This document shows positions 8,629 to 37,837 of a DNA stretch of 64,000 nt, piece after piece. Both the position numbers and the translations under genes were made by a program. Location of the stretch: positions 89,157 to 153,156 of the forward strand of contig JAFGGP010000013.1 of assembly GCA_016930485.1 (NCBI GenBank). The letters are read 5' to 3'. This stretch comes from Candidatus Omnitrophota bacterium. Its GTDB lineage: Bacteria > Omnitrophota > Gorgyraeia > JAFGGP01. Within the stretch, counting starts at the first letter, position 1. Every line of letters starts with the position of its first letter. Below the pieces are notes generated by a model. That model was not told where the DNA came from. It saw only the letters and a program-made list of their open reading frames with translations, and did no database searches.

Positions 8629-8630
8629 AC

Positions 8631-11218: not shown

Positions 11219-12565
11219 ATGCCAAACAAAAGCGGCGCCAAAAATCACGGGCAGTCAACTGTTGAGTTTGCCCTTATTATTATTTCTTTTTTGCTCCTGA
11301 TTATGGGCATTGCTGATTTTACCCGTGCGCTCATGATCCGAAACACGCTGAACCAGGCTGCCCGGGAAGGGGTGCGCGAGGCGGTGACATTCTTTGATTT
11401 GGTTGACAACGACCCGCGTGTCATGGAGGTTATGCAAGATATCCTGGATGCCGCCGGCATCAGTGATGACGAACTAAAAGAAATCACTCTGGAGACTCAG
11501 GATTATTTGACCGGAGAGCCGATTAAGGCAACGGTAACGGCCGGGTATCGCCCGTTTTTTTCCCGTCTTATCCCCGGTGTAGATCAGGTACAACTGGTGG
11601 GGATGGCCGTCATGCGTCATGAAATCGCAAATATTATAATTCCCGAGCCGCCGGCCGATGACGACGACGATGACGATGATGATGATGATGAAAACAATAT
11701 ACCGCCGATCGCCGTGCTTACGGCCGACCCGCTTTCTGGAAGCGTCTTGGTCGGTGTACCTAATAGAGATAAGCTCAACGTACATTTTGACGGGTCCAAA
11801 TCGGTGGATCCTGACGGGGGTTCGGTTGAGTATTCGTGGAATGTGGACGATGACTACTATAAAGAAGGGGGCGCGACTCTTGACTACAAATTTAGCGTAG
11901 GGACGTATTATGTCATACTTACCGTGACCGACGTTGATAGAGCCACTGACAGCGCCCGCGTCGATATCACGGTTAAAGCGGCACCCCCAGAAACTGATGA
12001 TGACGATGATGATGATGACGCGAATACTGTTAAGGCCTGTTTTACCGCAATCCCTGAGTCTGGAAATGCCCCGTTAACCGTTCAGTTCAGTGCAAGTTGC
12101 TCAACCGGTCCCATTACGAATTATGATTGGGTTTTTGGCGACGGCAACTCCAACTTTGGGACGGACGTAAACACCTCCAATATCTATAACGTTGGAACTT
12201 ACCAGGTCACGCTCACGGTAAGCAATGAGGATGCAACCTCCTCGACAAGCAAGACGATCTATGTGAGAGAACCTGGGGTAGACAATAAGCCACCAAAAGC
12301 GCGCATTAATGCATATCCACTGTCCGGAACCGCCGACTTAAAGGTGGAAGTCGATGCCTACGATTCCGAGGATGAGGATGGAAAGATTGTGGCCTATGCA
12401 TGGACTTTTGGAAACGGAAAAACAGGTTCAGGCGTTACGGCGAATACCGTCTATACGTCGGGAGGGTTGTACACTATTACCCTTACGGTATATGATAACG
12501 AGGCCGCATATGATACAGCTACAACAACTATCGATGTTGAGGATCTCAAGATTACTCCGGATTGA
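11219..12565 (+). CDS. TadE-like pseudopilin fused to three PKD domains via poly-Asp linkers (448 aa)
   Basis: The N-terminus GQSTVEFALIIISFLLLIMGIADFTRA has the TadE G/XXXXEF motif. D11 and D8 linkers are present. Three PKD-like repeats include WVFGDG...GTYQVTLTV and WTFGNG...GLYTITLTV. ATG 11219 is preferred because the track start 11147 lies inside a hairpin. Confidence 0.75.
   Translation: MPNKSGAKNHGQSTVEFALIIISFLLLIMGIADFTRALMIRNTLNQAAREGVREAVTFFDLVDNDPRVMEVMQDILDAAGISDDELKEITLETQDYLTGEPIKATVTAGYRPFFSRLIPGVDQVQLVGMAVMRHEIANIIIPEPPADDDDDDDDDDDENNIPPIAVLTADPLSGSVLVGVPNRDKLNVHFDGSKSVDPDGGSVEYSWNVDDDYYKEGGATLDYKFSVGTYYVILTVTDVDRATDSARVDITVKAAPPETDDDDDDDDANTVKACFTAIPESGNAPLTVQFSASCSTGPITNYDWVFGDGNSNFGTDVNTSNIYNVGTYQVTLTVSNEDATSSTSKTIYVREPGVDNKPPKARINAYPLSGTADLKVEVDAYDSEDEDGKIVAYAWTFGNGKTGSGVTANTVYTSGGLYTITLTVYDNEAAYDTATTTIDVEDLKITPD
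11657..11689 (+). repeat. in-frame GAY triplet tract encoding Asp x11
   Basis: gat gac gac gac gat gac gat gat gat gat gat, read directly in the frame of the CDS. Confidence 0.95.
11996..12019 (+). repeat. in-frame GAY triplet tract encoding Asp x8
   Basis: gat gat gac gat gat gat gat gac, read directly in the frame of the CDS. Confidence 0.95.
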
Positions 12566-12566
12566 T

Positions 12567-12977
12567 ATGCGAAAGGCTCAGGCCATTGTCGAGATGGCCC
12601 TTTTAATCCCGGTCCTGTTGTTGCTTGTGCTGGGTATCTTTGATGCTTCGCGGGCATGTCTCTTGAAGGCAAATTTAAATGAAGTTGCCCGTGAAGGTGT
12701 CCGGAAGGCGGCGCTGCTTGAAAACATCGAAACCGACGATAGCCGGGTTATTGATTACTGCACGCAGTTACTGGAAGAACAGGGCCTTATGCCTGAAGAA
12801 CTAACAGACCTGACTATACTGGTTGAGCTTGAGCAGTCAACCCCTATTATCGGAGACGCTATCACCGTGCGGGTAAGCAGGCGATTCAGGGGGATCTCGG
12901 GAAGGATTATTCCTTTTTTTGAGCCTGCTATACCCATCGTTGGAAAAAGCGTCATGAGGTACGAGGCAGGTTCATAA
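12567..12977 (+). CDS. TadE/TadF-like pseudopilin (136 aa)
   Basis: MRKAQAIVEMALLIPVLLLLVLGIFDASRA...NEVAREGVRKA parallels the N-terminus of the upstream TadE-like gene. ATG lies 1 nt after the upstream stop. The track start 12354 overlaps the PKD gene. Confidence 0.65.
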   Translation: MRKAQAIVEMALLIPVLLLLVLGIFDASRACLLKANLNEVAREGVRKAALLENIETDDSRVIDYCTQLLEEQGLMPEELTDLTILVELEQSTPIIGDAITVRVSRRFRGISGRIIPFFEPAIPIVGKSVMRYEAGS

Positions 12978-13001
12978 CTCTACGAACTGCGGGGTGACCG
13001 T

Positions 13002-14186
13002 ATGCAGAAACAAAAGACATTTCTCATTTTAGCGCTCGCAATATTTTTCGGCTTTCTTGCAAGCTACTCGATGTATCAGTTCTTGCGGTCTCAAAAACAG
13101 CCCGAAGAGGCGAAGGTTACAACAATCGAGCAACCGGTCATCCTGGCAAATAAAGACCTTGCCCGCGGCGCCGTTGTCGATAAAGACGACATCAAAGCGG
13201 TGCAATGGCCGATCTCAAAGATTCCCCGGAATAGCTTTGCAGAGGAAGGGGAAGTTATTAACCGGATAGTCCGACGGGAGATCACCAAGGGTTCGGCTGT
13301 ACTAACCGATGACCTTCTTCCGGTAAAGACGGTTATCGAAGAGATACCCGAGGGCATGCGGGCATTACCGTTAGAGGTAGAAGGCTTCATGGGCGATGAA
13401 ACCATGTTTGTAGCCGGTGGCTTTGTTGATATTTTGGCAACCTTTAAGACGAGTGACAAAAAACTGATAAGCAAACTTGTTCTGCAAAATGTAAAGCTCC
13501 TGGCGATCCCGCAGAGTGTAGAAAAGAAGGAGAGAAGGCGCGAAAAGAGGGATGTTGTGGTGGCCGTTTCACCCGAAGATGCCGAGGCCCTGGCCCTTGC
13601 GCAGAAGGCGGGCGATATCTTTCTTGTAACAAGGACCCTTACCGATAAGAGCTATGTTGTCACGCCCGGCGCAGATATCACCGATTTAAAAAAGATGGGT
13701 TCTGAGCGGTGGGCTTTCCTTAAAAAAATTCCTGAAGGAAAACGTGCAGTCAGTCTTTGGACACTCAGTGCCATTCTAACCGAGGACTTCTTGCAACCGG
13801 GTGCCCATGTTGATATTGCAGTAGCCTTCACTTCGCCAGAAAGCGGGAAGCAGGTAGTCAAAACGCTCCTGCAGAATATCGAGGTCCTGGCTATCCGCAC
13901 CGAAAGCGACATCACTGTTTCGGCGCCCGGAGTTAATATCCGCGGCACCGCCTCAGAGGTTGTCGTAGCGGTTGAACCTCAAAACGCCGAGGCACTTCTC
14001 ATAGCCTCATCCAAAGGGAGTGTGGTGCTATTGCCGCGAACCCTCGATGACAATTCGGTAGTCGACCTCCGAATGGGTACCTCCGAGGACGATATTCTAA
14101 AAACAGAAAATACGGTTGAGGTGATACGTGGGACGGCAAAGAAACAGGAGGTTTTAAGTCCGATTAAGCCGGTAGCAAACAACTAA
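13002..14186 (+). CDS. cpaB: Flp pilus assembly protein CpaB/RcpC with duplicated C-terminal domain
   Basis: N-terminal TM helix and a SAF-like segment (VILANKDLARGAVV). These are followed by two similar ~105-aa IPEGxRA...VDI...LQN..LAI...VVVAV.P..AEAL...RTL modules. Confidence 0.8.
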   Translation: MQKQKTFLILALAIFFGFLASYSMYQFLRSQKQPEEAKVTTIEQPVILANKDLARGAVVDKDDIKAVQWPISKIPRNSFAEEGEVINRIVRREITKGSAVLTDDLLPVKTVIEEIPEGMRALPLEVEGFMGDETMFVAGGFVDILATFKTSDKKLISKLVLQNVKLLAIPQSVEKKERRREKRDVVVAVSPEDAEALALAQKAGDIFLVTRTLTDKSYVVTPGADITDLKKMGSERWAFLKKIPEGKRAVSLWTLSAILTEDFLQPGAHVDIAVAFTSPESGKQVVKTLLQNIEVLAIRTESDITVSAPGVNIRGTASEVVVAVEPQNAEALLIASSKGSVVLLPRTLDDNSVVDLRMGTSEDDILKTENTVEVIRGTAKKQEVLSPIKPVANN

Positions 14187-14209
14187 TGATTTCATTTAAG
14201 GAGGCTTCT

Positions 14210-15685
14210 ATGACAAGCCGTGCCAAGCGGGCAATAAGGCAGACACTGGGTATGCTATTTATAATACTACCGCTGCTTTTTATATCCCCCGGATCCGGCG
14301 AGGCAAAAACTGTCCTACTTGGTCAGGAGGATACTACGACAGTGCTGTTAGTAGGCGGGAAATCGAAATTAATCACGTTTGAAGACAAGATTTCACGCGC
14401 CTCGATTACAGAAACCGACATCGCAGATGTTGTGGTAGTGTCCCCGTGTGAGATTGTGCTCAACGGGAAGAAGCCGGGGACGACCACCTTGATTGTCTGG
14501 GATATGAATGAAGAGAGTACCACGTTCGATCTTTCGGTCGAGTTGGATACGGCACAGTTGCAGCAGCTGATTAATCAGCTTATACCGTTCGAGGATATCT
14601 ATATTTATCCAGCGAGTGACTCTGTGGTCCTTGCTGGAGAAGTGGCAAGGGAAACGAGTATCCAAAAGGCCATGAACCTTGCCCGGGCCTTTGTGGTAAA
14701 CGAAAATAAACTGGTTAATCTGATGAAACTGCAGGAACCCAAGCAGATTATGCTGCAGGTTCGGTTTGCCGAGGTCGATCGTTCAATTGAAAAAAATCTC
14801 GGGATCGATTTTTTTATACAGGATGCCAACTATACACGGAGCAGTTTTATCGGTGGGTTGTTATCTCCTCAAGTTTCTGCTACATCGACAGACTTCGGCA
14901 TATCGTCATCAACTGATCTGCTCCTCGAGATGCGTCGCGGGACCAATTACACCATGGCCTTTAAGGCACTTGAAGAAAAAGGGCTTTTACGCATTATCGC
15001 AGAGCCAAATCTTTTGGCAAGAAGCGGTGAGGAGGCAAGTTTTTTAGCCGGCGGCGAATTTCCAATACCCGTGGTTCAGGGGGCAGGGGGTACTGCGTCA
15101 AATTCCGTTACGATCCAGTTTAAGGAGTTTGGTATAAAGCTGAACTTCACCCCGGAGGTAACCGATGCCGGCAGCATCAAACTGAAGGTCGCCCCCGAGG
15201 TAAGTGTGCTGGATTTCAGTTCTGCGGCTGTTCAGCTTTCCGGTTTCAGCGTTCCTGGCCTCGTAACAAGAAAGGCCGATACGACCGTCGAGATGGCAAG
15301 CGGGGAGAGTCTTATTATCGGGGGGCTCATCTCTCAGAAGGAAACAAAGGGATTGGATAAAGTACCTATATTGGGGGAGATCCCTGTCTTGGGGTGGCTC
15401 TTTAAAAGTGACAGCTATCAAAAGGAAGAAACAGAGTTGATTGTATTGGTAACCCCTATCTTTATCAAGCCTGTCGCACTCAATGATCTGGCCGAAGTCG
15501 CATCACTGCATGAGACACCGGAGTTAATAAAGCCGCAAAAGGCCCCATATCGGGATGCCCAGGCTGACCTGATGAGGGGTTTCATTGATCCTCAATCAAG
15601 TATTGTAAGAAAAACCCTGGATCAGGTAGAGGAGGAAACAGCGCCTTATGCACCTCAATCATCACAAGGATATGGATACTATTAA
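14210..15685 (+). CDS. cpaC: Tad secretin CpaC/RcpA
   Basis: Signal peptide, pilus-N domain (ISRASITETDIADVVVVSP...GTTTLIVWD), and secretin core (GGEFPIPV, ESLIIGGLIS, VPILGEIPVLGWLFKS). AAGGAGG at 14198-14204 favours ATG 14210. Confidence 0.85.
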   Translation: MTSRAKRAIRQTLGMLFIILPLLFISPGSGEAKTVLLGQEDTTTVLLVGGKSKLITFEDKISRASITETDIADVVVVSPCEIVLNGKKPGTTTLIVWDMNEESTTFDLSVELDTAQLQQLINQLIPFEDIYIYPASDSVVLAGEVARETSIQKAMNLARAFVVNENKLVNLMKLQEPKQIMLQVRFAEVDRSIEKNLGIDFFIQDANYTRSSFIGGLLSPQVSATSTDFGISSSTDLLLEMRRGTNYTMAFKALEEKGLLRIIAEPNLLARSGEEASFLAGGEFPIPVVQGAGGTASNSVTIQFKEFGIKLNFTPEVTDAGSIKLKVAPEVSVLDFSSAAVQLSGFSVPGLVTRKADTTVEMASGESLIIGGLISQKETKGLDKVPILGEIPVLGWLFKSDSYQKEETELIVLVTPIFIKPVALNDLAEVASLHETPELIKPQKAPYRDAQADLMRGFIDPQSSIVRKTLDQVEEETAPYAPQSSQGYGYY

Positions 15686-16868
15686 GTTCCATGCTGTCTG
15701 TTTCGGGTCGCACAAGGGTCAAAGAGGCGTCATCGCCCTTGCTGCTATCACCCTGATTGCTTTACTCGCGATAGGGGCCCTTGCCGTTGATTTGGCGTAT
15801 CTTTATACCAGTAAAGGAGAGCTTCAGAATGCCGCTGATGCAGCGGCACTTGCCGGTGTCGGGGCGATCTGGGCCGGGTCTGAAAGCGCCATCGATGAGG
15901 CAAAGGAATTTGCGGCCAAGCATTGGGCCGCCGATGATATTGTGGAACTGCAAGACTCTAATATTTTAACGGGGGAGTGGAGTTTTGCGGAGGAAAAGTT
16001 CACAGCTAACGTTGTGCCGCCCAACGCAATCCAGGTACGGGCAAGCCGTGATGCTGATGCAAAGCAGGGCAAAATCGGCTTATTTTTTGCCCGGATTCTC
16101 GGTATGCAGGACATCGCCCTTTCGGCCACGTCTACCGCGGCTATCGGTGGTAGAAACATCGTTATGTGTCTCGACCGCTCAAAGTCGATGGAGGAAGGCA
16201 GTGGAATAAAGGACGAGGACGGAAAGGAACTAAAACTCATAGAGCTACTTGAAAAGGCCGCCATCGATTTTGCGAACGACCTAGAGACCTCACTTGCCGA
16301 TGATCGGATAGGAGTGGTGTATTATCACAGCTTCGCCTGGGATTACATTCGCACTATGAAAGACCCGGGGACACAACACAGCCAGATTGTCGACGATATT
16401 CACGGAGGGGCCTGGGCAGACTGGCCGGATGGCATCGGCGGACCGCCTGATAAGGGCTGGACCTGTATCTCGTGCGGCATGAATGAGGCATGGAAAGAGC
16501 TGGCGTCAGACAGGGCGACCCACTGGGGCGTCCGCGTTATGATCATCATGACAGACGGGCACCCAAACCTGATTCTCGATCCGCCGGGCGATGTGGGCGA
16601 ATACGCGATGGAGCATTCGATATTCATAAACGGTGCCGAGGCCAATCGAGATGCAAGGGAGGAGATACTCGAATTGGCACAAAAAATCGCAGATGAAGGT
16701 ATCGTCATTTATACTATTGGGTTAGGTCTGGTGAATAGAACTCTTCTTGAGGATGTCGCAGAAATCGGGGGAGGGAAGGCTTACTTTGTTTCTTCTGCAC
16801 ACCCTGAGGAGTTGGATGACGCGTTTGAAAGCATAGCCGAAAAAATACCCATTATTCTTGCAAAGTAG
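15648..16868 (+). CDS. TadG-like pseudopilin with C-terminal VWA (MIDAS) domain
   Basis: Tad N-terminal motif GQRGVIALAAITLIALLAIGALAVDLAYLY...LQNAADAAALAG. VWA DxSxS (LDRSKSM, 16173-16187), MTDG, IYTIGLG. The start is uncertain (15648 or ATG 15672). Confidence 0.7.
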   Translation: MHLNHHKDMDTIKFHAVCFGSHKGQRGVIALAAITLIALLAIGALAVDLAYLYTSKGELQNAADAAALAGVGAIWAGSESAIDEAKEFAAKHWAADDIVELQDSNILTGEWSFAEEKFTANVVPPNAIQVRASRDADAKQGKIGLFFARILGMQDIALSATSTAAIGGRNIVMCLDRSKSMEEGSGIKDEDGKELKLIELLEKAAIDFANDLETSLADDRIGVVYYHSFAWDYIRTMKDPGTQHSQIVDDIHGGAWADWPDGIGGPPDKGWTCISCGMNEAWKELASDRATHWGVRVMIIMTDGHPNLILDPPGDVGEYAMEHSIFINGAEANRDAREEILELAQKIADEGIVIYTIGLGLVNRTLLEDVAEIGGGKAYFVSSAHPEELDDAFESIAEKIPIILAK

Positions 16869-16881
16869 AGGCGGGGACATC

Positions 16882-18090
16882 ATGGAAAAACTATCCACCT
16901 TAATTATCGCCGATAATCGCGAGCAGTCTGATTTATTAAAGCGAGAGCTTGTCGCAGTACCCGATACAATACTGGACATTGTCATCAGCTCGTCGCTTTC
17001 CGAGGCAAAGCCCGTCTTATTAAAACGCCCCGAAATTATCTTTATTGAAATCAGCGAGATTGCCGAGTCGGGTATCGACCTTGTTCGAAGAATTTCTTTA
17101 GAGTCCCCTACATCGCTTCTGGTTGCCATATCTAAAAACGACGATGCCGATCTAATCCTCAAGGCAGTGCGTGCCGGGGCCAAGGATTTCTTGAAAATAC
17201 CTACCACCTCCTCACAGCTAACCCCTCTGATAGAACGGGCAAAACGGATAGAATCGGGGGCCAAACCTCTCAAGGAACGCATGGGTAAGGTAGTGACCGT
17301 CTTCAGCAATAAAGGCGGCACCGGTACCACGACCCTTGCTATTAATCTTGCCGTTGCCCTGGCAACCCTGAATGAATTTTCGGTGGTCGTTGTCGACCTT
17401 GTCCTGCAACACGGGGACGTATCGGCATTTTTGGATATTGCACCTACCTATACCATTGTAGACATTATAGAAAACTTTGAACGCCTCGATGCGAGCTTTT
17501 TAAAGGCCGCTTTGGCAAAACACTCCTCCGGTATTTACGTACTGGCGGAACCCCTGCATCCCGAAGAGGCTGAATTAATTACCACATCACAGATCGGCGA
17601 AATACTAAAGCTGCTCCGTACCATGTTCGATTATGTTATCGTGGACGGGGGTAATGAGTTTGATGAACATGTTTTATCATCCCTCGATTTATCAGACACT
17701 ATTTTGCTACTGTCCCTTTTAAATCTCCCGGCTATCAGGAATACAAAACGGTGTCTCGATATCTTTAGGCGGCTCAGATACGACCCGGAAAAAGCCCGAT
17801 TGATTATTAATCGTTATGACTCACACGAGATCGATAAAGTTTCTATCGAGTCGGTTGAAAAGGCGTTAAACTATACCGTGAGCTGGAAGTTGCCGAATGA
17901 CTATTTTTCTGTTATCAGCGCTATTAATCAGGGGCTTCCGATATTTTCCATCGATAGAAGATCGAAACTGTCTCAGAGTATTTTACAGTTAGCAGGCATC
18001 TTAGCGGACCGGCAAATACCGACCCAGCTCATTAAACGGGAGGAAGGGCTGCTCGATAAAGTAAAACAGATCTGGAAAGGTGGTAAGTAG
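16882..18090 (+). CDS. cpaE: TadZ/CpaE: pseudo-receiver domain + ParA/MinD-type ATPase
   Basis: The receiver-like N-terminus has Glu where the phospho-Asp would be (IIFIEISE). Deviant Walker A VFSNKGGTGTTTLAINLA. ATG 16882 lies after the upstream stop. Confidence 0.8.
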   Translation: MEKLSTLIIADNREQSDLLKRELVAVPDTILDIVISSSLSEAKPVLLKRPEIIFIEISEIAESGIDLVRRISLESPTSLLVAISKNDDADLILKAVRAGAKDFLKIPTTSSQLTPLIERAKRIESGAKPLKERMGKVVTVFSNKGGTGTTTLAINLAVALATLNEFSVVVVDLVLQHGDVSAFLDIAPTYTIVDIIENFERLDASFLKAALAKHSSGIYVLAEPLHPEEAELITTSQIGEILKLLRTMFDYVIVDGGNEFDEHVLSSLDLSDTILLLSLLNLPAIRNTKRCLDIFRRLRYDPEKARLIINRYDSHEIDKVSIESVEKALNYTVSWKLPNDYFSVISAINQGLPIFSIDRRSKLSQSILQLAGILADRQIPTQLIKREEGLLDKVKQIWKGGK

Positions 18091-18092
18091 CT

Positions 18093-19451
18093 ATGGCCCT
18101 GAGAGATCGGCTGCACGGAAAAGACGACGAGAGCAAGAAAAAACTGGTGGACGAGTATGAGGCAACCGAGCCTTTCGGAGGAAGCGATCTCCTCAACGAA
18201 CTGAAGATGCGTATCCACCGTCAGCTGATCGACAAGATTGACTTGGCAAATGTCACTAAAATTGACGGGGTGCAGGCGCGCGATGAAATCAGAAAAATCA
18301 TCCAAGATTTAATCGAAGTTGAATCCGTCCCCCTCACTGTTCCCCAGAAACGCCAGCTTGCAAAAGAAATTGAAAATGAGGCATTTGGTCTGGGTCCGCT
18401 TGAACCGCTTCTCAGTGACCCGACTATCGATGATATCCTTGTAAATGGACCCAAACAGGTTTATATCGAGCGGTTCGGAAAGCTGGAACTCACCAAGGTC
18501 GTATTTAGAGACGGGGCGCATCTGAAACAGGTCGTTGACCGTATCGTCAGCCAGGTGGGACGGCGCGTTGACGAGGCCTCGCCCATGGTTGATGCACGAC
18601 TGTCGGACGGCTCACGGATTAATGTTATCATTGCGCCGCTTGCGCTTGACGGACCCGTTGTCTCGATCAGGCGATTCAAAAAAGACCCCCTGACCATTAA
18701 AGACCTGTTAACGTTTGGGTCGCTCAGTAATGAAATAGTCTTATTGCTGGAGGCGACCGTAAAGGCAAAGCTGAATATCCTGATCTCAGGCGGCACCGGT
18801 TCGGGAAAAACAACGCTTCTCAACGTTATCTCCAGTTTCGTACCAAATTCTGAACGTATTATTACCATTGAAGATGCGTCTGAACTCCGACTGAGAAAGG
18901 CCCATGTGATCAGACTGGAAACAAGACCTCCTAACATCGAAGGAAAAGGAGAGGTTGCTCAAAGAGATTTGGTAAGAAACAGCCTGAGGATGAGACCTGA
19001 TAGAATTATCGTCGGCGAGGTGCGCGGACCCGAGGCTATTGATATGCTCCAGGCAATGAATACCGGCCACAAAGGGTCACTTACCACAATTCATGCCAAC
19101 ACACCTCGCGACGCCCTGGCGCGCCTGGAGACCATGATTCTCATGGCAGGGCTCAATCTAACCTCAGAGGCAATGAGACGGCAGGTTGCCGCCGCAATCG
19201 ATATCGTTATCCAGCTTGAACGGTGCGTTGACGGCGTCAGGCGCTGCATGTCAATTTCCGAATTGGTCGGTATGGAAGGGGATGTTATACGCATGCAGGA
19301 TATTTTTCTATTCAAGGCCCGTCAGATTAATCAGAAAGGTGAAGTTGTGGGCGATTTTATACCAACGGGCATTCAGCCTGCATGCTATGAAAAAATAAAA
19401 GAAAAGGGGATTGTCCTGCCGCTTAATATCTTTATGCCAAAGGTGTCATAA
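18093..19451 (+). CDS. cpaF: Tad pilus ATPase CpaF/TadA
   Basis: Walker [21 protein letters not shown], Walker B IIVGEVRG, His box GSLTTIHAN. Confidence 0.92.
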
Positions 19452-20413
19452 TGGAACTATTTGTCGCCATTTGCATATTTCTCGCGGTTGTCCTTATGAT
19501 ATTTGCCTTTGCCATCCCGCGTTTTTCTTATAAGGAAATTTCTCTTGATCAGATTGAACGCCGCGTCGGCGGCTTTGCGCAAAGAAAAAAACGGGAAACA
19601 CCGAGTATTATCAGGCAGCTAAAGCTCAGTGACAACCCTTTTTTTGATGCCATGCTCAAAAAAATGCCACCAGCGGTTAAGGTGGCACACGCAATTAATC
19701 AGGCAGGCCTTAAGGTTCCGCTGGGAAAGCTTATTGCACTGATTTTTATCCTCTTTTTCTCGATCCTCGTAATCGGCGTTGTCTTTTCGATCACACCAAT
19801 CCCCATCCTCACCATGTCTCTTATTGTCTTCTGTGCACCCTTTCTCTATATCCATTTCAGAAAAAAAAGACGTCTGAGAGAGTTCACCGAAATTCTCCCC
19901 GATGCCTTAAGCATGATGGCCAACGCGCTCCGTGCGGGGCAGGGTTTTAGCTCTGCTCTTGAAATGGTAGCCAATGAAATGCCGGATCCGGTAGCCCTGG
20001 AATTTAAAAAGACCATTGCCGAGGTTAATCTCGGCGTTGCGCTCGAGGATGCATTCAGCCATCTCGGGGAACGCGTGCAGACGCCGGATGTAAAACTTTT
20101 TGTCTCTGCAATACTTCTTCAACGAGAGGTAGGGGGAAACCTTGCCGAGTTTCTTTACACGCTTGAAGATACCGTTCGGCAGCGATTTCGCTTGCAAAGG
20201 GAGCTGAAAACATTAACAGCCCAAAGCAGACTTTCCGGATTTGTAGTCGGGTTTTTACCATTTGCAGTCGCGATGGTCTTATTGATTGTCAATCCAGAAT
20301 ATATGAGGGTGCTCATCACCGAGCCAACAGGTAGAATTATTTTATTTATCGCCGTCTTTTTGCAGGTTGTCGGTATTTTGACGATTAAAAAGTTAGTGTC
20401 AGTTGAACTATAA
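19451..20413 (+). CDS. tadB: Tad platform protein TadB
   Basis: Polytopic membrane protein with a GspF-like segment LPDALSMMANALRAGQGFSSALEMVANEMPDPV. The start overlaps the cpaF stop by 1 nt. Confidence 0.8.
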   Translation: MELFVAICIFLAVVLMIFAFAIPRFSYKEISLDQIERRVGGFAQRKKRETPSIIRQLKLSDNPFFDAMLKKMPPAVKVAHAINQAGLKVPLGKLIALIFILFFSILVIGVVFSITPIPILTMSLIVFCAPFLYIHFRKKRRLREFTEILPDALSMMANALRAGQGFSSALEMVANEMPDPVALEFKKTIAEVNLGVALEDAFSHLGERVQTPDVKLFVSAILLQREVGGNLAEFLYTLEDTVRQRFRLQRELKTLTAQSRLSGFVVGFLPFAVAMVLLIVNPEYMRVLITEPTGRIILFIAVFLQVVGILTIKKLVSVEL

Positions 20414-20428
20414 GTAAAGCGAGCGACT

Positions 20429-21358
20429 ATGGGAAGCGTATTTTTATTTTTCGCATCACTGAGCACTTTTTTCGCGATCGCGTTTTTTGTCTTTGTCCTG
20501 AGCGTGCAATTTACTGAAAAGATAAACCGGTGGGGTTCTCGGTATGACCGTCTCGGTCTTTCCGAATCCAAAAAAGAAAACGATCAAACAACCTTTCGTG
20601 ACATCATCCAGTCTTATGTAAAGCAAAAAAAGCAAAAAAATGTGAAAAAAAGGCATTCTGGGCCTTCAAAACAGTTTTACCTTGCTGGTTATGACACGGC
20701 TGCCTCGGTAAGTGCCTTTGTTGTTATTAAATGGGTGATTACCTGGGCGTTAGTTCTTGCCTTTACTATCGGAATGGTGGCGGCAGGCCTTGATTTCGCA
20801 AAAATCCTTGTGCTTAATATTTTTATTATTATTGGGTGCATGTTTGTCATGCCGACTTTTTATCTGAGAAGCAAAGCAAACGCCAGACTTAACGAGATAC
20901 GCCGGCATCTCGCGGACACAATCGATCTTCTCATTATCTGCCTTGAGGCAGGTCTTGGATTTGACGCCGCGCTTCTCCGCGTTGCCCAGGAGCAGCGAAG
21001 GAGCAGTCAATTTATTTCAAAGGAGCTCTTCCACACTAATCAGGAAATACTTGCCGGCTTATCGAGAGAGGCAGCCTTACGAAATCTGGCTGAACGATGC
21101 GGCAACCAGCCTGATATGCAGTCGCTGGTGGCTGTCATAATCCAAGCGGAAAAAATCGGGGCCAGTGTCGCAAAAACATTGCGGACACAAAAGGACTCCA
21201 TCAGATTTAAGAGGCGTCAATCTGCGCAGGAGGCCGTCATGAAACTGCCTGTCAAACTGGCCTTCCCACTTATCTTTTTTATCTTTCCGCCGTTAATTCT
21301 GATTATTTTAGGTCCTGCCGTAATCCAGTTTGCCCAGTCGATGTTCGGCGCGCAATAA
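20429..21358 (+). CDS. tadC: Tad platform protein TadC
   Basis: Membrane protein with a GspF-like segment LADTIDLLIICLEAGLGFDAALLRVAQE and a C-terminal TM pair. Paralogous to tadB. Confidence 0.8.
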   Translation: MGSVFLFFASLSTFFAIAFFVFVLSVQFTEKINRWGSRYDRLGLSESKKENDQTTFRDIIQSYVKQKKQKNVKKRHSGPSKQFYLAGYDTAASVSAFVVIKWVITWALVLAFTIGMVAAGLDFAKILVLNIFIIIGCMFVMPTFYLRSKANARLNEIRRHLADTIDLLIICLEAGLGFDAALLRVAQEQRRSSQFISKELFHTNQEILAGLSREAALRNLAERCGNQPDMQSLVAVIIQAEKIGASVAKTLRTQKDSIRFKRRQSAQEAVMKLPVKLAFPLIFFIFPPLILIILGPAVIQFAQSMFGAQ

Positions 21359-29453: not shown

Positions 29454-31250
29454 ATGAAAAAAAATGAGCTCATCAGAAATTTTTGTATTATTGCACATAT
29501 TGATCACGGAAAGTCGACCCTCGCCGATCGCTTACTAGTGACAACCGGTGCAATCAGTCTGAGAGAATTCCGCGAGCAGTTGCTGGACGACATGGACTTG
29601 GAACGAGAACGGGGCATAACCATTAAGTCTTCGGCAGTCAGGCTGTCGTATCAGTCGAAAGACGGTCCTGAATACATCCTTAACCTCATCGATACCCCGG
29701 GGCATGTCGATTTTTCATACGAGGTTTCGAAGGCGTTGACCGCCTGTGAGGGTGCATTACTCCTCGTCGATGCGGCACAAGGGGTTGAGGCACAGACGGT
29801 GGCAAATCTTTACCAGGCACTCAACCATGAGTTAAAGATTATACCGATTATCAACAAGATCGATCTCACGAATGCACAGATAGAGCTGACAGCACAGCAA
29901 ATCAGCGATATTCTCGAGATCGACGAAAGAGACATCATCCGCGCAAGTGCCAAGGAAGGAGTGGGAATCCGAGATATACTGGAGCGCATCATCAGAGATG
30001 TTCCTCATCCACAGGGGTCCCCAGAAGACCCTCTTCAGGCCCTGATTTTCGACTCGGTATTTAATACCTACAAAGGGGTGATTGTGTATATCCGTGTTTT
30101 TTCAGGATGCATCGAGGCAGGAATGAATATCGAGATGATGGCAATCAAACAGACATATACCGTTCAAGAAGTCGGAATTTTTCGTCCGAAACCCCAAACA
30201 ATAAACAGACTGGAAGCGGGGGAGGTTGGGTATCTGACATGTAATCTCCGCGATGCCCGCCATATCTCCATCGGCGATACAATCACCAATATACATAAGC
30301 CATGCGCAGTCCCACTGACTGGTTACAGAGAAGTCAATCCTATGGTTTTTTGCGGTATCTACCCGTCTAACGCGAAGGATTTTGCCGCCTTAAAAGAAGC
30401 GATTACTAAATTGGCTTTGAATGACTCCTCATTTATATTTGAAATAGAGTCTTCTCCTTCCCTTGGTTACGGCTTCCGCTGCGGTTTTCAGGGATTGCTC
30501 CATATGGAAATCATCCAAGAACGTCTTGAGCGGGAGTACGACCTTAACCTTGTGCTGACAACTCCAAGCGTTAAATACGTCGTGACTAAAAAAAGAGGGG
30601 AAACTCTGGAGGTTGACAACCCCAGTCTTTTTCCGCCCCCACAGGAAATAGAATACATATCGGAACCCTTTGTAAAGGCAACGCTTATGGTCCCTCAAGA
30701 CTGTGTCGGACCTCTTATGGAACTTTCCATAGCGCGACGGGGGATATATAAGTCAACCGAATATCTTGGCGAAAATCGCGCCCGGATGTTTTTTGAATTT
30801 CCGCTTTCCGAGATCATCGTCGATTTTTACGATAAACTCAAATCGTCGACGCGTGGCTATGGTTCGATGGAGTATGCGTTTCTCGAATACAGAAAAACAG
30901 ATGTGGTTAAAATGGATATCCTCATAAACGGGCAACCATGCGATGCGCTTTCATCGCTTCTGCATAAAGAAAAGGCCGAGTATAAAGGTCGACAACTTCT
31001 GATAAAACTTAAAGAGTTGATCCCGCGGCAGCTCTTCGAAGTCGTAATACAGGCGGCTATCGGCAACCGGATCCTCGCCCGAGAAAGAGTCCCTCCTTTA
31101 AGCAAGCATGTGACGGGAAAATGTTATGGCGGAGACATCACAAGAAAAAGGAAGTTGTGGGAAAAACAGAGGATGGGAAAGAAACGCATGAAAAAATTTG
31201 GCAAGGTAGACATTCCGCAAGAGGCGTTTCTTGCGGTATTGAAACTGTAA
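29454..31250 (+). CDS. lepA: elongation factor 4
   Basis: IRNFCIIAHIDHGKSTLADR, DTPGHVDF, NKIDL. 598 aa with a LepA-type C-terminus. Confidence 0.96.
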   Translation: MKKNELIRNFCIIAHIDHGKSTLADRLLVTTGAISLREFREQLLDDMDLERERGITIKSSAVRLSYQSKDGPEYILNLIDTPGHVDFSYEVSKALTACEGALLLVDAAQGVEAQTVANLYQALNHELKIIPIINKIDLTNAQIELTAQQISDILEIDERDIIRASAKEGVGIRDILERIIRDVPHPQGSPEDPLQALIFDSVFNTYKGVIVYIRVFSGCIEAGMNIEMMAIKQTYTVQEVGIFRPKPQTINRLEAGEVGYLTCNLRDARHISIGDTITNIHKPCAVPLTGYREVNPMVFCGIYPSNAKDFAALKEAITKLALNDSSFIFEIESSPSLGYGFRCGFQGLLHMEIIQERLEREYDLNLVLTTPSVKYVVTKKRGETLEVDNPSLFPPPQEIEYISEPFVKATLMVPQDCVGPLMELSIARRGIYKSTEYLGENRARMFFEFPLSEIIVDFYDKLKSSTRGYGSMEYAFLEYRKTDVVKMDILINGQPCDALSSLLHKEKAEYKGRQLLIKLKELIPRQLFEVVIQAAIGNRILARERVPPLSKHVTGKCYGGDITRKRKLWEKQRMGKKRMKKFGKVDIPQEAFLAVLKL

Positions 31251-31853: not shown

Positions 31854-31897
31854 TTATCTAGTATCTCAATACTATGACTTCTAACAATGGAGGCGAT

Positions 31898-32197
31898 ATG
31901 AAGCACACGATGTTACTAACGATCTTGGTGATTGTCCTTTTATCGGTTGGCTGCACAACAACACAAAAGGGTTCAGGAATCGGTGCCGCGACAGGGGCTG
32001 GTCTTGGTGCCATTATCGGACATCAGTCTGGTCATACTGCGGAGGGGGCGGCAATTGGGGCCTTGGGAGGAGCGGCGGCGGGTGCTCTCATCGGAGAGCA
32101 GATGGATACAAAATTTTGCCCAACATGCGGACGCTCTTATCCCGGCAATGTAACTTACTGTCCAAACGATGGTACCGAACTGCGGTGGAAGGAATAA
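31898..32197 (+). CDS. lipoprotein with glycine-zipper region and C-terminal CxxC...CxxD zinc-ribbon-like motif
   Basis: Lipobox LLSVGC. GxxxG-rich GIGAATGAGLGAIIG...GALGGAAAGALIG. C-terminal CPTCGRSYPGNVTYCPNDG. GGAGG lies upstream of ATG 31898. Confidence 0.6.
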   Translation: MKHTMLLTILVIVLLSVGCTTTQKGSGIGAATGAGLGAIIGHQSGHTAEGAAIGALGGAAAGALIGEQMDTKFCPTCGRSYPGNVTYCPNDGTELRWKE

Positions 32198-32223: not shown

Positions 32224-32769
32224 ATGACCGCTGCTAATTTAATTACTCTGTCACGGTTCATTTTGGCTTTATTTTTTGTGGTACTTATTTTATTGGCAGA
32301 CCCAGTAAATGAGTCTATTCGGCTCATTTGCCTGGGTCTTTTTTTGGCGGCCTCCCTCACCGATGCGCTAGATGGCTTTGTTGCCCGGAAGACAGGAGCA
32401 AAAACCATGCTGGGTACCATACTCGATCCTATCGCCGATAAAATTCTTCTGCTGAGTGCCTTCCTTGCATTCGCCTTTGTTGATACGCTGCCTCTTTACC
32501 TGAGGGCGCCGAAGATAGTCGCCATAGCAGTGCTCTGCAGGGACATGTTAATTATCGGGGGGTGCATATTCATATATCGTATCAATAAAAAAATTCATAT
32601 TACCCCTTCACCGATAGGGAAGATTACAACCTTTTTGCAGACAACCGTTATACTTTTAATGCTTTTAAAATTTTCTCAAATGAACACGCTGCTTTACTGC
32701 GTAGCCGTTGTTACTGTTATTTCCGGAATTGACTATGTCTATCGAGGAGTCAACTTATTAAAGACATAA
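32224..32769 (+). CDS. pgsA: CDP-alcohol phosphatidyltransferase (PgsA-like)
   Basis: DALDGFVARKTGAKTMLGTILDPIADK matches D(x2)DG(x2)AR...G(x3)D(x3)D. Multi-TM, 181 aa. Confidence 0.8.
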   Translation: MTAANLITLSRFILALFFVVLILLADPVNESIRLICLGLFLAASLTDALDGFVARKTGAKTMLGTILDPIADKILLLSAFLAFAFVDTLPLYLRAPKIVAIAVLCRDMLIIGGCIFIYRINKKIHITPSPIGKITTFLQTTVILLMLLKFSQMNTLLYCVAVVTVISGIDYVYRGVNLLKT

Positions 32770-34067: not shown

Positions 34068-34679
34068 ATGAAACTTCTCCTCGGGCTTATATTTTCGTAT
34101 GTACTCGGTTCTTTTCCAACGGCATATATTATTGCCAAAAAAATGAAAAATGTCGATATACGCCACTTTGGCAGCGGAAATGTTGGGGCCACAAACGCTG
34201 CACGACTCATTGGATACCGAGCAGGCAGTCTCGTATTACTCATTGACGTTCTCAAAGGACTGCTCCCGGCCACATGCATCGCCCAGATATGCTCTTCGGG
34301 GCTTGAAACAATCAGCCCTTCACAGGTCAGCTGTCTATACGGACTAGCTGCCTTTATCGGTCACAACTGGTCATGTTTTCTCGGATTTAAAGGCGGTAAA
34401 GGCGTTGCAACTGCGGCTGGTGTATTTTTGGGGGTCATACCTGACGCTGTGCTGATTGCCGGAGGAGCCTGGATTATTGTTGTGTTTGCAACACGGTATG
34501 TCTCTCTTGGTTCGATACTGGCGGCGGTCGCTATCCCTGTACTTGCCATTATCCTCAACAAACCCCCTGAAATAGTACTGATTTCCGTTCTCATTTCGAG
34601 TGCGGTTGTCTATCGGCACAAAAGTAATATTAACCGGTTAATTCATGGGGCAGAAAATAAACTGCGCCGCAGGTCGTGA
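34068..34679 (+). CDS. plsY: glycerol-3-phosphate acyltransferase PlsY
   Basis: FGSGNVGATNAAR and FKGGKGVATAAG motifs. Multi-TM, 203 aa. Confidence 0.92.
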   Translation: MKLLLGLIFSYVLGSFPTAYIIAKKMKNVDIRHFGSGNVGATNAARLIGYRAGSLVLLIDVLKGLLPATCIAQICSSGLETISPSQVSCLYGLAAFIGHNWSCFLGFKGGKGVATAAGVFLGVIPDAVLIAGGAWIIVVFATRYVSLGSILAAVAIPVLAIILNKPPEIVLISVLISSAVVYRHKSNINRLIHGAENKLRRRS

Positions 34680-34738
34680 CAAAAACTGTAACTTATTTAA
34701 AATAAAAAAGATAAAAGATAAAAAAATCTCACGGATAC

Positions 34739-34767
34739 TTGAATTTGACAAAAGCCTATGATATACT
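34739..34767 (+). promoter_or_regulatory. candidate promoter (TTGAAT-17 nt-TATACT)
   Basis: Boxes at 34739-34744 and 34762-34767, in the AT-rich 212-bp gap after plsY. Confidence 0.4.
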
Positions 34768-34840
34768 TTTACTTAGAGTAAAGAAGACTCTTTTTTATTG
34801 CCCGGATAATAAAAACTTTTAAAAAGTTAGATAAAATGTG

Positions 34841-34866
34841 GGCGTCCGAGCGACGCCTTTTTTATT
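34841..34866 (+). terminator. intrinsic-terminator-like hairpin (GGCGTC-5 nt-GACGCC + T7)
   Basis: Perfect 6-bp GC stem at 34841-34846/34852-34857 followed by TTTTTTTATTT. Lies downstream of the promoter above and 26 nt upstream of the next ATG. Confidence 0.5.
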
Positions 34867-34891
34867 TAACTTTGTCCAGGGGTGTGCAACA

Positions 34892-35275
34892 ATGAGAGAA
34901 ATTATCTTCAAGGACGTGACTTCACGCAATAGGCGTAAAGAGATCTCGGTATATGAGGCCGTGGAGAATGATGGGGTAGTTGCCATTAGTGAGCGCTATT
35001 CCCGCTATACATTGCGGCGCAGAGTTCTTGTTGACAATCAGGATGATCTGCAAAGTTGGATTCAAACCAATATCATATCCCAAAAACCAAAACTCCGAAG
35101 ACTTGATATTATGAAGTCTCATAATACACGCTTGGCCGAAGACCTCTATTCATATATCGCGGTCGGCAATTTTTATGTCCTTACAAAAAATGAAGTTCTG
35201 TCCTTCATCTTCACTGAAAGTTTCAAAATTCGATTCATCGATTTATGTAAAGCCCGTGAGTGCAATCCGTATTAG
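34892..35275 (+). CDS. hypothetical protein (127 aa), no recognisable motif
   Basis: ORF MREIIFKDVTSRNRRKEISVYEAVENDG... has no TM helix or signal peptide. It ends 11 nt before pilT. The track start 34838 would place the terminator hairpin inside the CDS. Confidence 0.5.
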   Translation: MREIIFKDVTSRNRRKEISVYEAVENDGVVAISERYSRYTLRRRVLVDNQDDLQSWIQTNIISQKPKLRRLDIMKSHNTRLAEDLYSYIAVGNFYVLTKNEVLSFIFTESFKIRFIDLCKARECNPY

Positions 35276-35286
35276 AAAGGTACTCC

Positions 35287-36597
35287 ATGAATCAGCAAAG
35301 ACGACTTATCGGTGAAGAACTCATACGAGAAGGCCTCATTTCGGAGGAACAGCTCTTCACGGCACTGGATGTGCAACGACTATCAGAGGCATGGCAAAAA
35401 CTGGGTAAGGTCCTTTTGGATCTGGGATACGTCAGCGCAGATGTCCTGAATAAGTTCCTTAAGGAAAAAAAATACACCGAGGAAGATGTCTCATTTGTGG
35501 AGGCAATCCCGGTATCGCTTGCAGAAGAGATCTCGATAACCCAGTACGACAATGTTCGAGAACTGCTCAGAATGATGGTATGCCAGGGGGCTAGCGATTT
35601 ACACCTCAGGGTAGGGGTAGCCCCAACGTTGCGCATAAACGGTATTATTAAAAAAACGCCCCTCGCGCCCCTTAATCCTGAAACAGTGCAAGAGTTACTT
35701 CTTCAGCTGATTTCTCGAGAAACGTTCGAAGAGTTTCAAGGCAAGAAAGAGCTCGATTTCTCCCTCAGCATCCCTGATCTCAGCAGATTCAGGATAAATG
35801 TCTATTTGCAGCGCGGGACTTTAAGTATGGCGATTCGGGCTATTCCGTACCGCATACCGACAATCGAGGAACTAACCCTTCCACCCATTGTAAAGGACAT
35901 TATTAATGTGCGGGGCGGGCTTATTCTCATTACCGGGGCTAACGGCATGGGCAAATCGACAACGCTGGCCTCCCTCGTCGGGTATCTCAATCAAACAAAA
36001 GAGCTCAATATTATTACCATTGAAGACCCGATAGAGTACATCCATAAACATCAATTAAGCACTATTGACCAACGCGAACTGGGAAAAGACACCCTGTCAT
36101 TTGAAGAGGCTCTCAAGCATGTAGTCCGGCAAGATCCGGATGTAGTAATGATTGGAGAAATGCGTGATCTGGAAACGATAAGGACGGCATTAACGCTGGC
36201 GGAGACTGGCCACCTGATTTTGGCAACACTGCATACGCTGGATGCCGTTCATGCAATCAACCGCATCGTCGATGTCTTCCCGCAAAACGAAAAAGAGCAG
36301 ACTAGAGTACAGCTTTCTATGGCACTTGAGGCGGTTATTTGTCAGCAGCTTCTACCCGCAAAGGACAAAAATAAACGCATCTTGGCAACAGAAATTCTGC
36401 GGGCTACAGACTCGGTCAGAAATCTCATTCGGACAAACCAGCTCCCTCAAATTTACACCATTATGCAAACGAGCTCTCAATTAGGCATGCACACCATGCC
36501 CCAATCATTGGTTACCCTCTATAAAAAAGAGCTCATTGTCAAAGACGAGCTTTTCAAACGCTGTCAAAATCCTGACGAAATTAAGGCCCTTCTTTAA
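35287..36597 (+). CDS. pilT: PilT-family type IV pilus retraction ATPase with ~90-aa MshEN/GspE-N-like N-terminal extension
   Basis: GASDLHLRVGVAPTLRINGI, Walker A GANGMGKSTTLA, DPDVVMIGEMRD, His box TGHLILATLHT, PilT signature SVRNLIRTNQ. N-terminal tandem LIGEELIREGLISEEQL.. / KLGKVLLDLGYVSADVL.. repeats. Confidence 0.85.
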   Translation: MNQQRRLIGEELIREGLISEEQLFTALDVQRLSEAWQKLGKVLLDLGYVSADVLNKFLKEKKYTEEDVSFVEAIPVSLAEEISITQYDNVRELLRMMVCQGASDLHLRVGVAPTLRINGIIKKTPLAPLNPETVQELLLQLISRETFEEFQGKKELDFSLSIPDLSRFRINVYLQRGTLSMAIRAIPYRIPTIEELTLPPIVKDIINVRGGLILITGANGMGKSTTLASLVGYLNQTKELNIITIEDPIEYIHKHQLSTIDQRELGKDTLSFEEALKHVVRQDPDVVMIGEMRDLETIRTALTLAETGHLILATLHTLDAVHAINRIVDVFPQNEKEQTRVQLSMALEAVICQQLLPAKDKNKRILATEILRATDSVRNLIRTNQLPQIYTIMQTSSQLGMHTMPQSLVTLYKKELIVKDELFKRCQNPDEIKALL

Positions 36598-36651
36598 AAA
36601 CACCTTTTTTATTGACGCCATGAAAATGTCTATGCTATCTTAAGGTCTGTT

Positions 36652-37677
36652 ATGCATTCCCGCGCTCAGGACCCTTCAAGACTGCACACCGCTATTCTTG
36701 GTGACGGTGGCTGGGGAACAACCCTGGCAATTCACCTGCTGAAAAAAGGGGAGTTGCCCACCCTCTGGAGCCCGTTTCCCGAGTATTGTGCATTCTTGAA
36801 AAAAGAACGTCGAAATCCCAAATTTCTACCCGACATCCCCATTCCTTGCAATCTGGAGATAACCGACGACCTAGCGTGTACACTTGGAAATGCCGATATT
36901 ATTACATTGGCCATTCCCTCGCGTTACATGAGAGGAATTCTCGAGAGGATAAAGGGACTTCCCAGAAAAAAAGAGGCTGTCTTTGTGAGTGTCTCAAAAG
37001 GCATAGAACATAAAACCCTTTTAAGAATGAGTGAGCTTATCGTCTCGATTCTCGGAGAAGTCCCACTCGCAATCCTCTCAGGACCTACCATTGCCAAAGA
37101 GCTTGCATCTGGAGTGCCGACAACTGCGGTCATTGCATCGCGTGATAATGGTCTCAGCAAAAACCTTCAGAGTCTCTTCACCAACGGAAACTTCCGGATA
37201 TATACCAGCTGTGATGTAGTTGGGGTGGAGCTCGGAGGAGCCCTTAAAAATGTCATTGCCATAGCCTGCGGCATCTCTGATGGTATGGGGTATAAATCGA
37301 ATGCAAAGGCCGCACTTATTACCCGGGGGCTTGCAGAAATGTCCCGCCTGGGGACTCATTTCGGTGCCGAGGCCAGCACCTTCATGGGCTTAAGCGGTAT
37401 GGGTGATCTGATAACAACCTGCATAAGCCCTTTCAGTCGAAACCGCAGTCTCGGTGAGGCTATCGGACAGGGCAGGTCGCTACGGCACATCCTGGATGAA
37501 ACCGAGATGGTAATCGAGGGGGTTGATACAGTAGTCAGTGCATATGAATTGAGTGTGCGATGCAACATCGACATGCCCATCACCCAAACCGTCTATGCCG
37601 TACTCTACCAGGAGAAAAATCCCCGCACCGCTGTCAGCGAGCTATTCTCGCGTCCCCTGAAGGCGGAAAAATCCTGA
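36652..37677 (+). CDS. gpsA: NAD(P)H-dependent glycerol-3-phosphate dehydrogenase
   Basis: ILGDGGWGTTLA Rossmann motif, LKNVIAIACGISDGMGYKSNAKAALITRGLAEM. Confidence 0.92.
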   Translation: MHSRAQDPSRLHTAILGDGGWGTTLAIHLLKKGELPTLWSPFPEYCAFLKKERRNPKFLPDIPIPCNLEITDDLACTLGNADIITLAIPSRYMRGILERIKGLPRKKEAVFVSVSKGIEHKTLLRMSELIVSILGEVPLAILSGPTIAKELASGVPTTAVIASRDNGLSKNLQSLFTNGNFRIYTSCDVVGVELGGALKNVIAIACGISDGMGYKSNAKAALITRGLAEMSRLGTHFGAEASTFMGLSGMGDLITTCISPFSRNRSLGEAIGQGRSLRHILDETEMVIEGVDTVVSAYELSVRCNIDMPITQTVYAVLYQEKNPRTAVSELFSRPLKAEKS

Positions 37678-37759: not shown

Positions 37760-37837
37760 CGGGACGTAGCGCAGCATGGTTAGCGCACCAGACTGGGGGT
37801 CTGGGGGCCGGCGGTTCGAGTCCGCCCGTCCCGACCA
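37760..37837 (+). tRNA. tRNA-Pro (anticodon GGG), CCA encoded
   Basis: Hand-folded cloverleaf. Acceptor CGGGACG/CGTCCCG, D-arm GCGC..GCGC, anticodon stem CCAGA/TCTGG with loop CTGGGGG, T-arm GGCGG-TTCGAGT-CCGCC, then discriminator A + CCA. Confidence 0.88.

Follow-up and report, generated by a model that had tools for sequence, protein, structure and literature searches.

To our knowledge, the described control of type IV pili by cyclic di-GMP (c-di-GMP) lies on the extension side, acting through the N-terminal domains of MshE and PilB and through PilZ/FimX adaptors. PilZ-type adaptors, which are small and cytoplasmic, link c-di-GMP signalling to the motor of the type IV pilus (PMC8389850; PMC11461919), and in the published MshEN motif, Arg, Lys, Pro or Asn is expected at the first Arg position of motif 1, with a 5-residue spacer between the two motifs and a final Gln in motif 2 (PMC5013675). 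Here, we describe a 64,000-nucleotide stretch of contig JAFGGP010000013.1 from a Candidatus Omnitrophota bacterium (GenBank assembly GCA_016930485.1, positions 89,157 to 153,156 of the forward strand; hereafter the window), in which plsY and gpsA are separated by a gene for a 127-aa small protein and a gene for a PilT-family ATPase with an MshEN-like N-terminal module. We lean towards reading this pair as an attenuator-controlled operon that co-expresses a small protein of the c-di-GMP network with a retraction ATPase tagged by a sensor domain, the domain being assigned by sequence.

Functionally, the ATPase is a bona fide member of the PilT family and is predicted to be catalytically intact. 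Its core scored 434.8 bits against TIGR01420 (cutoff 319.1; model positions 2-343 of 343), and a PDB search retrieved solved PilTs at E ~1e-100 versus 1e-34 for PilB. Aligned to 5ZFQ and 6OJX, the Walker A (GANGMGKST), Asp box (IITIEDPIEY), Walker B (DVVMIGEMRD) and His box (GHLILATLHT) motifs are intact, and SVRNLIRT aligns with AIRNLIRE, the motif that distinguishes PilT from PilU, with the RNLIR core kept and the flanking residues differing. Among the matches listed, the top-scoring PilT relatives were tandem double-PilT proteins of ~715-760 aa (from Lentisphaerota, Myxococcota and others), and no close full-length (>50% identical) relative of the window’s PilT was present.

An additional N-terminal domain, which had been overlooked in the earlier reading of this PilT, appears to be of the c-di-GMP-receptor type. 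Residues 8-60 scored 47.4 bits against NF053729, the NCBIfam model of the MshE-related c-di-GMP motif (cutoff 38), and the N-domain of Vibrio cholerae MshE (PDB 5HTL) was matched at E 1.2e-4. The module comes near the published motif without being canonical (its departures are given below): it keeps all hydrophobic positions, both Gly positions and the first-Gln position, and a regular-expression search in the relaxed published form matched its motif 2 (K38-K61), so that c-di-GMP binding by the module is plausible. The orthologue in a close relative (locus L001; loci of relatives are numbered L001 onwards) has an allowed residue in motif 1 (P-I-G). A metagenome scan returned 80 loci with the closest MshEN domains, all of them on ATPases of PilB/MshE size (560-640 aa) and none on a PilT, and the MshEN::PilT fusion was found only in the window and L001.

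The 127-aa open reading frame (ORF) in front of pilT is a real gene, as indicated by purifying selection, a family of 42 representatives and a confident fold model. Its start is placed at ATG 34892 and not at an upstream GTG, because all family members begin MREI/MKEL there; relative to a 72%-identical orthologue, pN amounted to 0.20 and pS to 0.94. The family emerged from an exhaustive HMMER search, which gave the 42 representatives (110-130 aa, aligned end to end) where a word-indexed search gave only 2 proteins, and a profile search added 28 further members, every named one of which was from Omnitrophota. Three long matches were left out: P0124 and P0154 are repeat proteins with scores inflated by many weak repeat matches, and P0123 (1682 aa) contains one short matched stretch. 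An AlphaFold2 model from a 40-sequence alignment reached a predicted local distance difference test score of 91.9, with a predicted b-b-b-a / b-b-b-a fold (b, strand; a, helix) that resembles a pseudo-duplication. No match was obtained for 40 family members in Pfam, for the 127-aa protein in NCBIfam and PADLOC, for its sequence profile in the PDB, or for its model in Foldseek searches of the PDB and BFVD (best template-modelling score 0.36). The small protein thus belongs to a phylum-wide family that is predicted to be well folded and has no known relative in the Pfam, PDB and BFVD searches. Identity as a PilZ domain was considered and rejected, since none of the 40 members matched PF07238 even at E<=1, hhalign against the PilZ of L027 gave a probability of 0.2%, no RxxxR ... 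(D/N)xSxxG motifs were found in the small protein, and the predicted topology is different.

Evolutionarily, the small gene is a conserved resident of this locus across the Omnitrophota, and only pilT is lineage-specific. Loci L002-L009 carry lepA-lepB-pgsA-der-plsY-small gene-[37-39-aa Met-rich ORF]-gpsA-hom-thrC without PilT, and because relatives have der-plsY-small gene-gpsA-hom-thrC in this form, the small gene is taken as the resident and pilT as the addition. A scan of GTDB species representatives, queried with a 12-sequence sub-alignment of the family, recovered 62 further loci, all in Omnitrophota-type metagenome-assembled genomes (some labelled Planctomycetia or Patescibacteria), with the small gene 3' of plsY or of ileS-dksA-like-lspA, and/or 5' of gpsA, which places the family at this housekeeping position in >70 loci overall. 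PilT occurs near the small gene in 4 of ~75 loci, namely the window, L001, L010 and L027. L001 has the same MshEN::PilT next to the small gene; in L010, a plain 355-aa PilT overlaps the stop codon of a small gene whose product is only ~21% identical, and in two relatives of L010 without PilT (L074, L076) the small gene leads straight to the lipoprotein gene that in L010 follows PilT. In L027, the order is small gene-gpsA-PilZ::PilT-PilZ-hom, with a 452-aa PilT bearing an N-terminal PilZ domain (7423-8781) and a stand-alone PilZ (8838-9299) both lying between gpsA and hom. From these arrangements, we infer separate acquisitions of PilT in L001/window, L010 and L027.

The plsY-gpsA gap is not recent foreign DNA and is neither a mobile nor a defence island: no integrase or transposase ORF lies between the two genes, there is no compositional shift across the gap (GC content equals that of the neighbours except in the leader, and the composition of pilT matches its neighbours), and a PADLOC search for defence systems gave weak P-loop matches only. 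The first-pass annotation of this DNA had described a two-gene module, an orphan protein with a PilT-like ATPase, inserted between plsY and gpsA. The split of plsY from gpsA by extra genes (1972 bp with two ORFs) was borne out, as were the AT-rich gap, the 127-aa ORF, the PilT-family ORF, and the absence of any Pfam or NCBIfam family for the 127-aa protein. Of the insertion itself, only the pilT half stands relative to the ancestral order, the small gene being resident in the 62 loci plus L002-L009. The protein is no orphan, given 42 representatives and synteny across Omnitrophota, and the idea of a fixed module with PilT gives way before the great majority of loci that have no PilT beside the small gene; the pairing does recur in L001, in L010 (with a very divergent family member) and, two genes away, in L027, but not in >70 others. 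As a separate observation, the 37-39-aa Met-rich amphipathic ORF (..H.VMI.AA.WKL..LK.QM..) conserved 3' of the small gene in relatives overlaps the small gene’s stop or lies within ~30 nt of it, in the same slot as the window’s pilT, and is absent from the window.

Associations between the small gene and c-di-GMP signalling in relatives are coherent and, as read from their sequences, appear to include both cis-regulation and translational coupling. The leader of L025 contains a c-di-GMP-I riboswitch (RF01051, clan CL00126) whose score of 36 bits reaches the gathering score of 35, and the leaders of L013 and L017 gave c-di-GMP-I clan matches at E 8e-4 and 0.011, both below threshold, as was L056 at 22 bits. 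In the riboswitch leaders, the aptamer 3' strand GCCGGGUUGCC can pair instead with downstream GGCAACCCGGC, and a U-run follows that hairpin in several related L056-type leaders (L056, L058, L065, L072, L073), which suggests a ligand-controlled switch. At the protein level, the small gene shares its end with an overlapping canonical PilZ gene (RRxxxR ... NxSxxG) in L048 and L043; in L046, a PAS-GGDEF-HD-GYP gene lies directly 3' of the small gene, and in L044 a GAF-HD-GYP gene lies directly 5' of it. Among 112 co-directional neighbour ORFs (known housekeeping genes excluded), PilZ was the commonest Pfam family, with 9 proteins in 6 species (L012, L027, L038, L043, L048, L073). In L024, L026 and L033, the small gene is followed by genes for MerR, a GspA/ExeA-like AAA_22 ATPase, a T2SSB-like protein and a secretin.

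Several features of these relatives were noted in passing. PilZ stands alone in the gpsA-hom slot of L012 and L038, and the secretin of L024 (locus segment 1361-6151; also L026 and L033) is a 662-aa protein with a TonB_C tail, followed by a PDZ protein. Loci L056-L073 (for example L064 5915-5975; also L068, L067, L070, L072) share a compact two-hairpin leader 5' of the small gene, with an invariant AUCCCCACCAGCCA segment followed by GGGGAU(A/G)AGCCGGGUUGCC ... GGCAACCCGGC, the 3' half of which is common with GEMM-I; covariation was seen only in the second hairpin. Identity of this leader with plain GEMM-I was not established: L056 stays below threshold at 22 bits, and L064 matches nothing in Rfam. 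The leader could represent a cyclic-dinucleotide riboswitch in degenerate or variant form.

In the window, the AT-rich gap is a conserved regulatory leader that occurs phylum-wide and is replaced by the c-di-GMP-I riboswitch in some lineages. It forms a 212-bp AT-rich stretch 3' of plsY (GC 0.35-0.37 at 34500-34950 versus ~0.46 around). The promoter- and terminator-like signals reported for it by the first-pass annotation are present; their number does not exceed expectation (5 in a 3-kb scan versus 5.3 from shuffles), and the promoter and terminator-like hairpin owe their credibility to the recurrence of the promoter/leader layout 5' of orthologues in ~45 other loci. The shared layout (~45 loci including the window) opens with a near-consensus TTGACA-17-(TG)TATACT promoter, continues with a T7-8 run that lies 21-24 nt (or ~48-50 nt) past the -10 element and, in only some of the loci, behind a stable hairpin, and then has an imperfect palindrome TAAAWAGWTTTAWAAAGTATTTA 17-19 nt past the T run, and a ribosome-binding site with ATG 27-35 nt past the palindrome. 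An 18-nt degenerate box occurs exactly once, on the + strand just 5' of the small gene, in 24 loci; the palindromic box could serve as a DNA operator or as a protein-bound RNA site. An extra GC hairpin with T run between the box and the ribosome-binding site is confined to the window and the L001 lineage, where the two hairpins differ in sequence and agree in structure and place, an instance of compensatory conservation, and single-sequence folds of both leaders yielded terminator hairpins only. Since only ~24 nt separate the terminator T run from the ATG in the window, leaving no room for another promoter, we infer that the small gene and pilT are expressed by terminator read-through. The two genes are regarded as co-transcribed because pilT, which starts at the conserved ATG 35287 and not at GTG 35260, begins 11 nt 3' of the small gene, with its own ribosome-binding site.

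Taken together, we posit that the small protein belongs, phylum-wide, to a c-di-GMP signalling network in which its expression and/or activity would be under c-di-GMP control, and that it would work with c-di-GMP receptors. In this lineage, the partner would be the sensor-tagged PilT, placing pilus retraction under second-messenger control, with transcription reading through the leader terminator(s) and the operon probably kept low and conditional. The pilus served would most likely be one of type IVa whose genes lie elsewhere; the Tad pilus is the less likely candidate. The weakest step is the last one, a possible role of the small protein as the motor's adaptor or regulator. A more far-reaching version, which we consider decidedly unlikely, would make the ~120-aa family a new class of c-di-GMP-network protein with an unseen fold, docking as receptor or adaptor on PilT-type motors and PilZ, so that in Omnitrophota the second messenger would gate retraction directly, through MshEN::PilT and PilZ::PilT (L027) together with this partner; the T-run/palindrome leader and the CCCCACCAGCCA two-hairpin leader (L056-L073) would then be new cis-regulatory RNA or operator classes replacing GEMM-I. 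A number of observations weigh against the operon reading. The >70 loci without PilT beside the small gene, many with only housekeeping neighbours, make the PilT link a minority pattern, and the neighbour associations are not phylogenetically independent, being plain counts over ~7 separate configurations. No ligand-binding motif is recognisable in the small protein, the window leader (34500-35400) has no match to Rfam clan CL00126 or RF01051 at E<=10, and across the 64-kb window there are no GGDEF, EAL, HD-GYP or PilZ motifs and no type IVa pilus core genes except one secretin. The transposases beside the small gene in L034 and L053, and the departures of the N-terminal module from the published motif, belong with these points and are taken up below.

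The plainest alternative is that the adjacency is incidental: the small protein would function in envelope, lipid or lipoprotein biogenesis, the DNA downstream of it would be a permissive insertion spot (for pilT, PilZ, GGDEF, transposases and giant genes), and pilT would be a displaced paralogue serving a pilus elsewhere. The tight syntenic linkage of the small gene to plsY/gpsA or ileS-dksA-like-lspA in almost every locus, the scarcity of PilT beside the small gene, and the mixed genes found downstream (adenosine kinase, YggS-like, a tetratricopeptide repeat protein, monogalactosyldiacylglycerol synthase, groES/EL) are all in keeping with it, as are the transposase neighbours, which suggest that the spot tolerates insertions (a Mutator-family transposase at 1062-2339 in L034 and an rve-family integrase-core gene at 4736-5761, minus strand, in L053, each directly 5' of the small gene). 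Neighbour turnover, however, leaves a c-di-GMP-I riboswitch directly on the small gene unexplained, and the overlapping PilZ genes of L043 and L048, which are translationally coupled, together with the overlapping PilT of L010, point to operon partners. PilZ is moreover the top family among the neighbours, and two of the three nearby PilT paralogues bear a c-di-GMP receptor domain, MshEN in one and PilZ in the other. On this balance, we regard incidental adjacency as possible but rather unlikely. We are similarly doubtful of a second alternative, in which the N-terminal module would have a degenerate MshEN fold, would have lost c-di-GMP binding and would serve in docking or oligomerisation, for example for the small protein, so that the motor would be controlled only by protein partners and transcription attenuation. 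In its favour, the module deviates at two polar contact positions and in spacer length: motif 1 has Leu in place of Arg/Lys/Pro/Asn with its first Arg shifted by one residue, the spacer has 7 residues where 5 are published, and Lys takes the place of the final Gln in motif 2. Pfam T2SSE_N gave no match at E<=0.01, and the MshEN_C subdomain is absent, the PilT core starting at residue 90. Yet the module passes the curated NCBIfam c-di-GMP-motif model and keeps the hydrophobic and both Gly positions, with motif 2 matching the relaxed pattern and the L001 orthologue retaining its allowed motif 1 residue, and the PilZ::PilT of L027 shows selection for c-di-GMP sensors on PilT within the phylum.

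A third explanation would make PilT the retraction motor of the Tad pilus encoded in the window, a dedicated motor that Tad systems normally lack. The Tad/Flp locus is complete, with two TadE-like genes (the first encoding 472 aa with three PKD domains), RcpC/CpaB, a secretin, a TadG-like protein with VWA, TadZ with a receiver domain, the CpaF/TadA ATPase, TadB and TadC; no other full pilus machine occurs in the window, and Tad complexes are prominent in Omnitrophota (PMC10066038). Against this, pilT is not linked to the Tad genes, and a PilQ-like secretin is present as well. PilT-family motors are known to work with type IVa platforms, and Tad systems are known to retract without a PilT-type motor. 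Type IVa pilus genes are, furthermore, reported as common in most Omnitrophota classes, Tad being enriched in one (PMC10066038), so a type IVa pilus is the default expectation for this PilT, and we judge service to the Tad pilus to be very improbable. The Tad locus and the isolated secretin with an ORF in front, both noted in the first-pass annotation, are as it described them, and its view that the partner machine cannot be identified from the window’s genes holds, no pilus platform genes being linked to pilT. We retain the attenuator-controlled operon as our working interpretation; the coordinates of its parts, and of the genes around it, are collected in Table 1.

Table 1 Features of the small gene-pilT locus and its surroundings (positions in the 64-kb window unless a relative’s locus is named).
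Feature	Position	Strand	Remarks
Tad/Flp locus, complete	11147-21358		14-24 kb 5' of pilT; only full pilus machine in the window
plsY	34068-34679	+	PF02660 at 2.5e-55; in most relatives the small gene is directly 3' of plsY
Sigma-70-type promoter, TTGAAT-17-TGnTATACT	34739-34767	+	promoter at equivalent position in ~45 orthologous loci
Leader element 1, short hairpin AGAGT/ACTCT into T6 run	34775-34796	+	23 nt after the -10 element; read from sequence
Conserved imperfect-palindrome box	34810-34832	+	core ACTTTTAAAAAGTT at 34815-34828; unique in the window; aligned by eye
GC-rich hairpin and T run, bidirectional intrinsic-terminator form	34840-34863	+	between box and ribosome-binding site
Small gene	34892-35275	+	127 aa, predicted cytoplasmic; undescribed Omnitrophota-wide family
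pilT ORF	35287-36597	+	436 aa; PilT-family ATPase
MshEN_N-like module of PilT	35287-35550	+	residues 1-88; two 24-residue motifs at residues 7-30 and 38-61
PilT ATPase core	35551-36597	+	TIGR01420 and motifs
gpsA	36652-37677	+	PF01210 and PF07479; in many relatives directly 3' of the small gene
PilQ/GspD-like secretin	60503-61999		STN, Secretin_N and Secretin domains; preceded by a 148-aa ORF without annotation (pair 60060-61999)
Met-rich ORF of relatives	L002 6373-6486; L004 6366-6479; L006 6372-6491; L008 5381-5473; L009 5368-5478		

The local gene order is lepA (29454-31250)-lepB-Gly-zipper/zinc-ribbon lipoprotein-CDP-alcohol phosphatidyltransferase-der-plsY-127-aa ORF-PilT-like ORF-gpsA-tRNA-Pro-hom-thrC. 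The lipoprotein (107 aa, 31874-32197), with a glycine zipper and a C-terminal zinc ribbon, lies between lepB and pgsA, which follow each other directly in the relatives examined. No ATG, GTG or TTG start precedes 32985 in der, yet the frame stays open further 5' and the G1 motif (GRPNVGKS) can be read from ~32790; the ribosome-binding site GAGGAG stands 7 nt 5' of ATT 32757 (window 32743-32760), and der probably starts at this non-canonical ATT codon, which would give ~436 aa in place of the listed 360 aa. A tRNA-Pro (GGG) occupies 37760-37837 between gpsA and hom, and the 91-aa ORF listed antisense to it is merely an artefact of this tRNA. Further downstream, the secretin pair lies between an IMPDH-like gene and rpsU, and its surroundings contain no further pilus genes.

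Omnitrophota are uncultured, ultra-small bacteria that have been inferred to attach to or prey on hosts, and control of pilus dynamics would therefore be central to their lifestyle. A receptor-type domain on a retraction ATPase would provide a direct second-messenger route to retraction, and two receptor types, MshEN and PilZ, occur on PilT within one phylum. The small protein, tied to c-di-GMP by a riboswitch and several gene fusions or neighbourhoods in relatives, is a concrete candidate for a new signalling component.

Compared with described systems, the window’s PilT resembles those of type IVa pili (Geobacter metallireducens 6OJX, Aquifex aeolicus 2EWV, P. aeruginosa 3JVU) in its full-length core match and its Walker A/B and His box motifs, and has SVRNLIRT as an AIRNLIRE-like motif. 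It differs from them in its extra 88-residue N-terminal MshEN-like module, in lying in a lipid/ribosome housekeeping neighbourhood rather than a pil cluster, and in being co-transcribed with a small protein of undescribed family behind an attenuator-like leader. With MshE/PilB/GspE-type ATPases (MshE, 5HTL, PMC5013675), it shares a tandem 24-residue motif module of MshEN_N type placed before a PilT/VirB11-superfamily ATPase; those, however, act in extension or secretion, measure 560-640 aa and include MshEN_C and N2 domains, whereas the window encodes a retraction-type PilT with the four-helix part only, and with the displaced Arg, longer spacer and terminal Lys described above. Genes controlled by GEMM-I find their counterpart in L025, L013 and L017, where the small gene sits behind a GEMM-I-clan aptamer with an alternative 3'-strand hairpin, whereas the window’s leader has a T-run, palindromic box and terminator in place of an aptamer. 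Finally, PilZ-type adaptors (Xanthomonas PilB-PilZ-FimX, PMC8389850; P. aeruginosa PlzR-PilZ, PMC11461919) differ from the small protein in sequence, profile and predicted topology, with no Foldseek match, and would be its analogues in the proposed role only, that of a small protein coupling c-di-GMP signalling to a pilus motor.

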